32,000 nucleotides of DNA. Origin: Alphaproteobacteria bacterium endosymbiont of Tiliacea citrago. Its GTDB lineage: Bacteria > Pseudomonadota > Alphaproteobacteria > CAJXXZ01 > DAHXLG01. Numbering within the stretch: the first letter of the stretch is position 1; each line of letters opens with the position of its first letter. Positions 26,025 to 26,798 of the stretch are shown here, in pieces. The stretch lies in contig NZ_OZ034995.1 in assembly GCF_964031065.1 (NCBI RefSeq), forward strand, positions 150,417 through 182,416, written 5' to 3'. The notes beneath the pieces were generated by a model, which was not told where the DNA came from, did not search any database, and saw only the letters and a list, made by a program, of their open reading frames with translations. Position numbers and translations under genes: made by a program.

Positions 26025-26798
26025 TTATAGTTCTTGTTCTAAGCCAAAAAAAATTTTTTTATCTAAATTTAAATTACTACTCATAATCATTTCTCTATAT
26101 CTACGATATTGTATTCCCTTCCAATAAGAAGCAAATATCTTTGCTTTTGTGTTTATATATGGAGCCCCACAATTACAATTTCTACAAATACGAAATAAAA
26201 CATCTTCCAAAAACGCATCTTTTTTAGTTTCAATAAAATTTTTCAAACTTAATAACATACCTCCTTTAATAAAGGTATGCCTATTGTAATATAAACTTTG
26301 TAAAGAAATTTGTATATTTAAAGGTAGTTTTTCAAAAAAAGGCATAAAATGAATAATTTCGCCTCTAAATTGTTTCAAAATGAATGATAAAATTTTTTTA
26401 CTATCTTCTTCAGTTATTATTTTTTGTTTTTCTTCAATTTGTTTTAAAAGATTTTGTTTTAAATTTTTAATATCAACATTAATTTGACTCAAAACAGTAA
26501 TTCCAAAATCAGTAAATTGTAAGTTGTTTTTGTTCGTTAATGCAAAGCCTGCTCCAATTGTTACTCTTCCTTCTGGACAAACATAAGGATATAAAGTACA
26601 AGATTCGCTCATTAAAATAAAATTTATCAAAGTTTCTTCATAACTATCATTAGTTAAAGAATCACGAAGTTGTCTTACTTTTTTTAATAAATACATTTGA
26701 TAAGGCCATGTTTTTTTGTCTTTTTCATCAAAAGAATTTTTATTTAAAATATTATCATATGATGCAAAATAAATTGGAGTACACAATTTTAAATTCAT
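26025..26798 (-). CDS. T4-lysozyme-like (GH24 family) protein with a roughly 60-aa N-terminal extension
   Basis: E65-x8-C74-x5-T80 in MSESCTLYPYVCPEGRVTIGAGF aligns residue for residue with T4 lysozyme E11..D20..T26 ([22 protein letters not shown]). Downstream, ITEEDSKKIL...LPLNIQISLQSLYYN...F..G and GIQYRRYRE parallel the P22/lambda-type lysozyme layout. Confidence 0.7.
   Translation of the reverse strand: MNLKLCTPIYFASYDNILNKNSFDEKDKKTWPYQMYLLKKVRQLRDSLTNDSYEETLINFILMSESCTLYPYVCPEGRVTIGAGFALTNKNNLQFTDFGITVLSQINVDIKNLKQNLLKQIEEKQKIITEEDSKKILSFILKQFRGEIIHFMPFFEKLPLNIQISLQSLYYNRHTFIKGGMLLSLKNFIETKKDAFLEDVLFRICRNCNCGAPYINTKAKIFASYWKGIQYRRYREMIMSSNLNLDKKIFFGLEQEL

Follow-up and report, generated by a model that had tools for sequence, protein, structure and literature searches.

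A divergent T4-lysozyme-type protein with cysteine at the Asp20 position, conserved next to a CI-like regulator and a HAD hydrolase in reduced alphaproteobacterial endosymbionts

The described systems closest to the protein reported here are T4 lysozyme (T4L, gp e) and Lyz of phage P1, a signal-arrest-release (SAR) endolysin with the triad Glu42/Cys51/Thr57 and the regulatory thiols Cys13 and Cys44. Muramidases are also known as effectors of the type VI secretion system (T6SS), such as the C-terminal domain of VgrG3 and the Tge family, and in type 10 secretion (TtsA of Salmonella Typhi and ChiX of Serratia) a domesticated phage-type wall hydrolase is under cellular control. Among the Alphaproteobacteria, the Caulobacterales possess SpmX, of which the GH24 domain lost Asp20 (D20L/R), Thr26 and Tyr18, and which contains an intermediate disordered region plus a pair of transmembrane (TM) helices at the C-terminus (10.1101/418723). 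SpmX is without export motifs and binds the cytoplasmic proteins PopZ and DivJ (PMC5347347). The catalytic triad of GH24 was defined as Glu-8X-Asp/Cys-5X-Thr (PMC3556154). Here we describe P0001, the product of a lysozyme-like gene (lys) located within a stretch of 32,000 nucleotides (hereafter the window; positions 150,417 to 182,416 of contig NZ_OZ034995.1) from the genome of an alphaproteobacterial endosymbiont of Tiliacea citrago. Judged from its sequence, its relatives and its predicted fold, P0001 is on balance probably a domesticated GH24 muramidase, still catalytic, that acts on the wall of the bacterium itself after export by a non-Sec route.

The open reading frame (ORF) of P0001 starts with ATG and codes for 257 residues; the identical NCBI entry carries the name 'hypothetical protein'. 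An alternative start further upstream was rejected, since the ORF was listed from the first start codon after the stop. By itself, P0001 matched the Pfam family Phage_lysozyme (PF00959) at E=0.047 and 14.5 bits, under the cut-off of 22.3 bits, and the endolysin family PHROG 7 at E=0.017. The phmmer search of P0001 against PDB yielded nothing relevant, the NCBIfam search yielded no match, and word-seeded homolog searches with the single sequence were uninformative. By an exhaustive HMMER search over 1.8 billion representatives, a family of 19 members (P0001 and 18 relatives) was collected at E=1e-56 to 7e-4, each member being a cluster at 50% identity. The consensus of the 19-member alignment is NEGCxLxPYxDxxGxxxIGxGLLL. 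PF00959 was matched by 13 of the 19 members at E<=0.1 (best E=1.1e-7), and for one member the JGI name is 'GH24 family phage-related lysozyme'. Upon search against PDB, the family profile detected T4L at E=3e-10. The alignment extends over about 140 columns and has E11/D20/T26 in register and the profile segment nEGcvlypYldsrghwtIGyGLlL aligned with the active-site stretch of T4L.

The structure prediction behaved in the same manner. The single-sequence AlphaFold model of P0001 showed a pLDDT of 38, and the AlphaFold2 (AF2) model made with the family alignment showed a pLDDT of 88.2 and a pTM of 0.88. The top Foldseek matches listed for PDB were all T4L, T4L fusions, T4 gp5 or a phage endolysin, with a probability of 1.0 (0.99 in one case) and target-normalised TM scores of 0.51-0.70 for stand-alone lysozyme chains; the named matches in the viral structure library BFVD were nearly all lysozymes or endolysins. 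The PF00959 matches, the family profile and the AF2/Foldseek results altogether confirm the homology to T4L and the mapping of E65, C74 and T80 to E11, D20 and T26, respectively. The first-pass annotation, which was made from the letters of the window, had proposed a T4L-like GH24 protein, and both the profile and the fold agree with it. The homology is real, but it cannot be established by the P0001 sequence alone; it is established by the family.

P0001 shares with T4L the fold over about 140 aligned residues, including the T4L-specific segment after GxGxLL, and keeps E11, Y18, T26, G28, G30 and R145 of T4L. The differences from T4L are the low identity (about 13-14%), the replacement of D20 by Cys, the presence of a 55-residue N-terminal extension and internal insertions, and the setting of the gene, which is chromosomal, vertically inherited in endosymbionts and without a holin partner.

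The catalytic segment (residues 65-84) of P0001 reads E65-S-C67-TLYPYV-C74-PEGRV-T80-IGAG. When the window was translated in six frames, the pattern E-x8-[DC]-x5-T-[IVL]-G-x-G had a single occurrence, and 200 shuffles produced none. The exact spacing of the T4L triad, as noticed at the first reading, was reproduced by the alignment of the family profile to T4L, in which Glu and Thr are kept and Cys occupies the Asp20 position. Among 18 family members examined at this position, Asp is present in 13, Cys in four (P0001-P0004) and Asn in one, a degenerate paralog. The Cys clade is monophyletic (97.5% bootstrap), and therefore Cys is the derived state by parsimony. The activity of T4L and P22 lysozymes survives only the D20C and D20A substitutions (bioRxiv 10.1101/418723), and the soluble endolysin of Caulobacter phage phiCbK also has Cys at the Asp20 position (PMC3556154). 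Because D20C retains the activity of T4L and P22 lysozymes, Cys74 is a sign neither of new chemistry nor of inactivation. The Cys-for-Asp replacement is ordinary, that is, a documented natural alternative.

Most of the remaining active-site positions are also well kept within the family, which has diverged to about 26% identity. Glu is found at the E11 position in 17 of the 18 members; Tyr is found at the Y18 position in all 18, Gly at the G28 and G30 positions in 18 and 17, respectively, Asn at the Q105 position in 15 of 18, and Arg at the R145 position in 17 of 17. P0001 itself retains E65, C74 and T80 together with the equivalents of Y18, G28, G30, Q105 (as Asn) and R145 of T4L. This retention, in contrast to SpmX, points to continued selection for catalysis and peptidoglycan binding. 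His or Ser is located at the T26 position in P0005, P0007, P0008 and P0019 and in P0011, P0012, P0014 and P0015 (alignment A1). The T26H substitution makes T4L a transglycosidase, and some of these members may not be simple hydrolases.

The sequence around the cysteine resembles that of P1 Lyz. Upon translation of P1 lyz, the loop reads A-E42-G-C44-RRDPYM-C51-PAGVW-T57-DGIG (AEGCRRDPYMCPAGVWTDGIG for P1 Lyz versus SESCTLYPYVCPEGRVTIGAG for P0001). The arrangement E / C(+2) / C(+9) / T(+15) is identical between the two proteins, and the loop PY-x-CP-x-G-x-x-T is nearly so. The Cys at E+2, which is engaged in the caging disulfide of P1 Lyz, is present in P0001 as C67, and the N-terminal C6, invariant in the Cys clade, recalls C13 of P1 Lyz. 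P0001 differs from P1 Lyz, however, with respect to the SAR/TM domain, which is absent (see below for hydropathy), and to C67, for which P0002 and P0004 have Met or Leu, whereas C6 and C74 are invariant within the Cys clade. In addition, the family as a whole is closer to T4L (36.1 bits) than to P1 Lyz (11.4 bits), and the P0001 gene lies neither in a phage nor in a lysis cassette, its neighbours being secE, the genes for a helix-turn-helix (HTH) regulator and a HAD-superfamily hydrolase, and rpsJ. Since the SAR domain is missing and C67 is not conserved in the clade, a P1-like thiol switch is only a possibility, and control of P0001 by thiol or redox state through C6, C67 and C74 is possible in the same sense.

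For a catalytic P0001, Glu65 would protonate the glycosidic oxygen between N-acetylmuramic acid (MurNAc) and N-acetylglucosamine (GlcNAc) in the MurNAc-beta-1,4-GlcNAc linkage, as in T4L and P1 Lyz, and the Cys74 thiol or thiolate together with Thr80 would position the attacking water. A phage endolysin, probably accompanied by its repressor, would have been domesticated at the root of the lineage, and the change from Asp to Cys would have taken place later, in the subclade holding this genome. The enzyme would cleave the peptidoglycan of its own cell for turnover, division or controlled lysis and release. Given that P0001 carries no signal of the Sec, Tat or lipoprotein type, the wall would have to be reached by a non-Sec route. 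The type 10 secretion systems include a holin together with a defined locus for the cargo; at the P0001 locus, neither was seen.

The N-terminal extension, specific to this family, is about 55 residues long, as residue 3 of T4L is aligned to about residue 57 of P0001. A long helix was confidently predicted by AF2 at residues 25-46 of the extension, and the extreme N-terminus of the extension is conserved as M-[ND]-L-x-x-C6-x-P-I-[YF]-[FY]. The N-terminus is polar (MNLKLCTPIYFASYDNILNKNSFDEKDKK), and the maximum of Kyte-Doolittle hydropathy for 19-mers, 1.06, is located outside the N-terminus, at residue 56. The N-terminal extension without signal peptide, described in the first-pass annotation, is thus real. 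The assignment of P0001 as a lipoprotein was rejected, because Cys6 is too near the N-terminus and there is no lipobox. The idea of a periplasmic enzyme for assembly of the T6SS apparatus, also raised at the first reading, is in difficulty, since such an enzyme would need an export signal and none is present. With respect to the other end of the protein, most Asp-type members carry a C-terminal extension of 50-90 residues ending with LP-x-I-x-x-I-x-x-x-LK (columns about 430-557 of alignment A1); the Cys clade including P0001 is without that extension and has the loop N-[RCK]-GAP-[YF] and the N-terminal motif C-x-P-I-[YF]-[FY].

The lack of an export signal is also what would be expected for a protein that stays in the cytoplasm, either as a non-muralytic or vestigially muralytic scaffold or regulator of the SpmX type, or as a cytoplasmic enzyme for glycans or muropeptides together with the HAD protein. 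SpmX is the alphaproteobacterial precedent for co-option of a GH24 domain from a phage lysin, and like P0001 it is chromosomally encoded, vertically inherited and without Sec or Tat signal; the tight conservation of the gene beside those of two cytoplasmic proteins, HTH and HAD, and the extra conserved N-terminal elements of the family fit such a role as well. We consider it nevertheless rather improbable, because the Glu, Asp/Cys, Tyr18, Q105 (as Asn) and R145 equivalents are kept, unlike in SpmX, and selection on catalysis and peptidoglycan binding is thereby indicated. P0001 retains the equivalents of Y18 and T26, and its residue at the D20 position is the activity-retaining variant Cys. 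It is, moreover, a stand-alone soluble protein without TM segments or SpmX-like architecture, belongs to the T4L and not to the P22 subclass, and is encoded in a lys-HTH-HAD module. To our knowledge, there is no GH24 enzyme with a cytoplasmic substrate.

Table 1. Features of the window around the lysozyme-like gene, and gene order at related loci (written with the lysozyme-like gene, lys, on the plus strand)
Feature	Position	Strand	Evidence or gene order
GH24 (T4-lysozyme-type) divergent gene, P0001	26025..26798	(-)	ORF, family profile, AF2, Foldseek
Motif E65-x8-C74-x5-T80-IGAG, including C67 at E+2	26547..26606	(-)	T4L alignment; P1 Lyz pattern
Family-specific N-terminal extension, residues 1-55	26634..26798	(-)	Alignments A1, A4; hydropathy; AF2
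XRE-type HTH regulator with LexA/CI-like C-terminal domain	25198..25935	(-)	Pfam HTH_3 1.4e-13; weak Peptidase_S24; PHROG 4 repressor 3.9e-14
HAD-superfamily hydrolase	24677..25201	(-)	Pfam HAD_2 2.5e-9; TIGR01549 9.2e-11; 4-nt overlap with HTH gene
secE	26849..27061	(-)	50 nt upstream of lysozyme-like gene; Pfam SecE 3.4e-7; TIGR00964 above cut-off
tssF (T6SS baseplate)	29650..31269	(+)	TIGR03359 8.1e-57; 2.85 kb from lysozyme-like gene
tssG, 5' part, runs off the window	31281..32000	(+)	Translation; orthologs in L001, L011 and L014 carry PF06996 T6SS_TssG
Locus L001, P0002			tssG-tssF / cysS / recF / secE-lys-HTH-HAD-rpsJ
Locus L014, close variant of P0004 (94% identical)			As L001
Locus L008, P0008			As L001
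Locus L011 (604-kb contig), P0016			As L001
Locus L006, P0004			lys-HTH-HAD-rpsJ
Locus L005, P0011			lys-HTH-HAD right after cysS; secE and recF missing
Loci L009/L010, P0009			lys-HTH-HAD intact; other neighbourhood (nusB, flagellar genes, patatin)

The window is very AT-rich (22-35% GC), and the lysozyme-like gene with 23% GC is like its flanks. The window is a housekeeping region, as are all its other genes that were checked: it contains mipZ, fmt, the ATP synthase operon, ndk and the S10-spc-alpha ribosomal operon with secY, adk and rpoA. These are followed, in minus orientation, by the genes for HAD, HTH, the lysozyme-like protein and SecE, and then by recF (plus strand), cysS (minus strand), tssF and the beginning of tssG (both plus strand). 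The three-gene order lys-HTH-HAD was found at all seven loci of relatives with downstream DNA available (L001, L005, L006, L008, L009/L010, L011 and L014). Since it recurs at seven loci, even in the rearranged neighbourhood of L009, lys-HTH-HAD can be regarded as an invariant unit. One copy of the lysozyme-like gene was found per locus recovered, except for two copies in L002/L003, and the synteny is kept among genomes in which CysS has diverged to about 50% identity.

The assignment of SecE to the small protein encoded directly upstream held true (30.5 bits for Pfam, 29.2 bits for TIGR00964). secE is located upstream of the lysozyme-like gene also in L001, L002 and L011, but not in L005 and L009, and in L009/L010 neither secE nor the S10 operon nor T6SS genes were detected within 10 kb. 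The adjacency to secE and to tssFG is a general synteny of a subclade. Of the 'nusG slot' that had been suggested for the lysozyme-like gene, the position after secE is correct, but the resemblance ends there, as the adjacency is lost in L005 and L009. The chance that P0001 functionally replaces NusG, for which its position directly after secE is the only argument, is close to nil: the protein has a lysozyme fold, NGN and KOW domains gave no match in Pfam at E<=1, and the 524-kb genome may just encode NusG at another place.

The T6SS gene about 3 kb away, pointed out at the first reading, is indeed tssF. tssF and tssG are context only, and a link to the lysozyme-like gene is not shown. tssF and tssG form an isolated pair between cysS and dnaB, the latter being located beyond tssG in the relatives; besides the window (29650..32000 (+)), the pair was observed at L001:2179-4664, L011:7410-9930 and L014:2038-4541. 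This conserved isolation from other T6SS genes indicates that the T6SS genes are scattered in this lineage. T6SS is retained in almost all Holosporineae, even in those with the smallest genomes, and its effectors are unknown (PMC11909080).

P0001 could be a T6SS cargo, a signal-less muramidase that is loaded on the spike of the conserved, atypical T6SS of this lineage and from there reaches the periplasm of co-resident bacteria, echoing T4 gp5 in function, and it does share with T6SS muramidase effectors the predicted peptidoglycan glycosidase activity, the lack of a signal peptide and the presence in a T6SS-bearing bacterium. The presence of gp5 among the fold matches, the position of tssF-tssG at a distance of 2.9 kb, which is common to L001, L008, L011 and L014, and the fast evolution of the lysozyme-like gene relative to its neighbours are in line with such a role. 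The link to the T6SS is weak, however. No vgrG, PAAR, hcp or adaptor gene was seen within 10 kb in the relatives (L001, L011 and L014); cysS, recF and secE intervene between the isolated tssFG pair and the lysozyme-like gene; and L009 has lys-HTH-HAD without a T6SS gene within 10 kb. Known T6SS N-terminal marker domains were not detected in P0001 (Pfam, E<=1). Neither holin-like nor immunity-like genes are adjacent, as noted at the first reading: an exported immunity candidate was found next to the gene neither in the window nor at the seven related loci, HTH and HAD being cytoplasmic, and a muramidase effector without immunity would strike sister cells. The delivery of P0001 by T6SS is therefore judged to be of low probability.

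At L002:3919-5800 and L003:3878-5759, secE is followed by two paralogs of the lysozyme-like gene in tandem. One of them, P0005, is without signal peptide and carries intact E and D residues of the triad, the T26 position being occupied by His. The other, P0017, is encoded 26 nt downstream. Its N-terminus is a clear signal peptide (MKIRYLFILFFMGQIFAHS...), and its triad is dead, with Q for E, N for D and V for T; this degenerate paralog is the only family member with a signal peptide. By its sequence features the pair resembles the layout of an effector and its immunity protein, which would be in favour of a T6SS cargo, or else P0017 resembles an exported pseudoenzyme that binds peptidoglycan.

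The selection on these genes was estimated from one close ortholog pair (L014 versus L006/L007). The lysozyme-like gene had a dN/dS value of 0.15, compared with 0.12 for RecF, 0.024 for HTH and 0.015 for HAD. All four genes are under purifying selection, with the lysozyme-like gene being the most relaxed. With respect to origin, no relative was found by tblastn (E<=1) among 50,697 INPHARED phage records or by two pattern scans in IMG/VR, and two scans of GTDB species-representative genomes gave no relatives, the family being absent or unrecognised there. The family was recovered only from relatives of this AT-rich, reduced alphaproteobacterial endosymbiont. The lysozyme-like gene and its CI-like neighbour seem to have been domesticated long ago, at the root of the lineage, and to have been inherited vertically since. 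Among three roles proposed in the first-pass annotation, the domesticated endolysin with a neighbouring repressor fits best, though as an ancient and conserved element and not as a recent leftover of a prophage.

A recent prophage remnant or a decaying gene without current function would account for the resemblance of the neighbour to phage CI-type repressors (PHROG 4) and for the score of P0001 alone under the Pfam cut-off, but is highly improbable. The ORF is intact and the orthologs are full-length, phage structural or integrase genes are absent from the 32-kb window, and the recent prophage is essentially refuted by these missing phage genes and phage homologs together with the dN/dS value, the synteny across genomes with CysS about 50% identical, and the GC content without anomaly.

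The T6SS of the lineage is conserved, the genomes are about 0.5-0.6 Mb in size and low in GC, and a deeper relative has patatin and flagellar genes. These traits match the descriptions of Holosporineae, especially of the fast-evolving Holosporaceae, with which the lineage may belong. The Hepatincolaceae are without T6SS (PMC11724238). In the reduced Holosporaceae endosymbionts of diplonemids, peptidoglycan synthesis is retained and belongs to the most complete pathways (10.1101/719211); if the present lineage belongs with Holosporaceae, the peptidoglycan substrate for P0001 would exist.

The C-terminal domain of the HTH protein was aligned to that of LexA, and the position of S119 is occupied by a gap or Asn and that of K156 by Gly or Ala. 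Since the catalytic Ser and Lys are both replaced, the protein is a non-cleavable CI/LexA-like regulator. In the HAD protein, motif I is invariant as WDWxGT, with Met, Val or Leu in place of the second Asp of the usual DxD (alignment A5), and motif I without this Asp is atypical for a phosphatase. One specific scenario would include the HTH partner: an ancient phage lysis/lysogeny cassette, consisting of a T4-type endolysin and the now non-cleavable CI-like repressor, might have been fixed in the core genome of 0.5-0.6 Mb endosymbionts, with the lysozyme exported by a non-Sec route (for instance an atypical T6SS or holin-independent lysis or secretion) and activated, in spite of the missing SAR domain, through its P1-Lyz-like thiols (C6, C67 and C74) outside the reducing cytoplasm. 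As a whole, this scenario is unlikely.

Several observations weigh against a catalytic enzyme for the own wall. A hydropathy scan revealed neither a signal peptide nor a SAR domain nor a TM segment in P0001 and 17 of its 18 relatives, and with neither an export signal nor an evident holin nearby, the access to peptidoglycan is hard to account for. The T26 position is variable (Thr in eight of 18 members, His in four, Ser in four, Asn in one and Val in one). The lysozyme-like proteins are 33-43% identical between genomes with CysS 65-72% identical, and such fast evolution compared with the neighbours also fits effectors or a decaying function. The AF2 model rests on a shallow alignment of 19 sequences. 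Only its position ties the lysozyme-like gene to HTH and HAD: the HTH gene is preceded by a promoter-like site of its own, and no conserved operator was detected by alignment of the lys-HTH intergenic regions or by inverted-repeat scan. All these points considered, the best reading of the role ranks the domesticated endolysin for the own wall above a T6SS cargo, and the latter above a cytoplasmic SpmX-like protein.

Non-essential genes are very scarce in genomes of about 0.5 Mb. A lysozyme-like gene that is retained in such tiny genomes, in synteny and under purifying selection, is probably important to cell-wall biology or to the interaction with host or competitors. What is new is the context, that is, a conserved, signal-less lys-HTH-HAD module in the core genome of tiny endosymbionts. 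The domesticated muramidase would represent the second independent co-option of a GH24 lysin by Alphaproteobacteria after SpmX, here with a predicted intact catalytic site, and it is relevant to the questions of how a lethal enzyme can be kept in check and how wall hydrolases without signal gain access to the periplasm. P0001 is also a candidate for the cargo of the T6SS in these symbionts, which is uncharacterised.

Several minor observations were made within the window. The counts from promoter and terminator scans were no higher than those in shuffles. A terminator-like hairpin at 26254..26281 (-), the only one in 24400..27200, is located inside the lysozyme-like coding sequence and is probably a chance occurrence (one versus 0.6 expected in shuffles). 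Two ORFs among the housekeeping genes, 1973..2947 (+) of 324 residues and 8071..8487 (+) of 138 residues, remained without a match in Pfam (E<=0.001). The listed ndk ORF, 7499..8074 (+), begins with TTG about 54 residues ahead of the NDK domain, and its true start is probably located further downstream.

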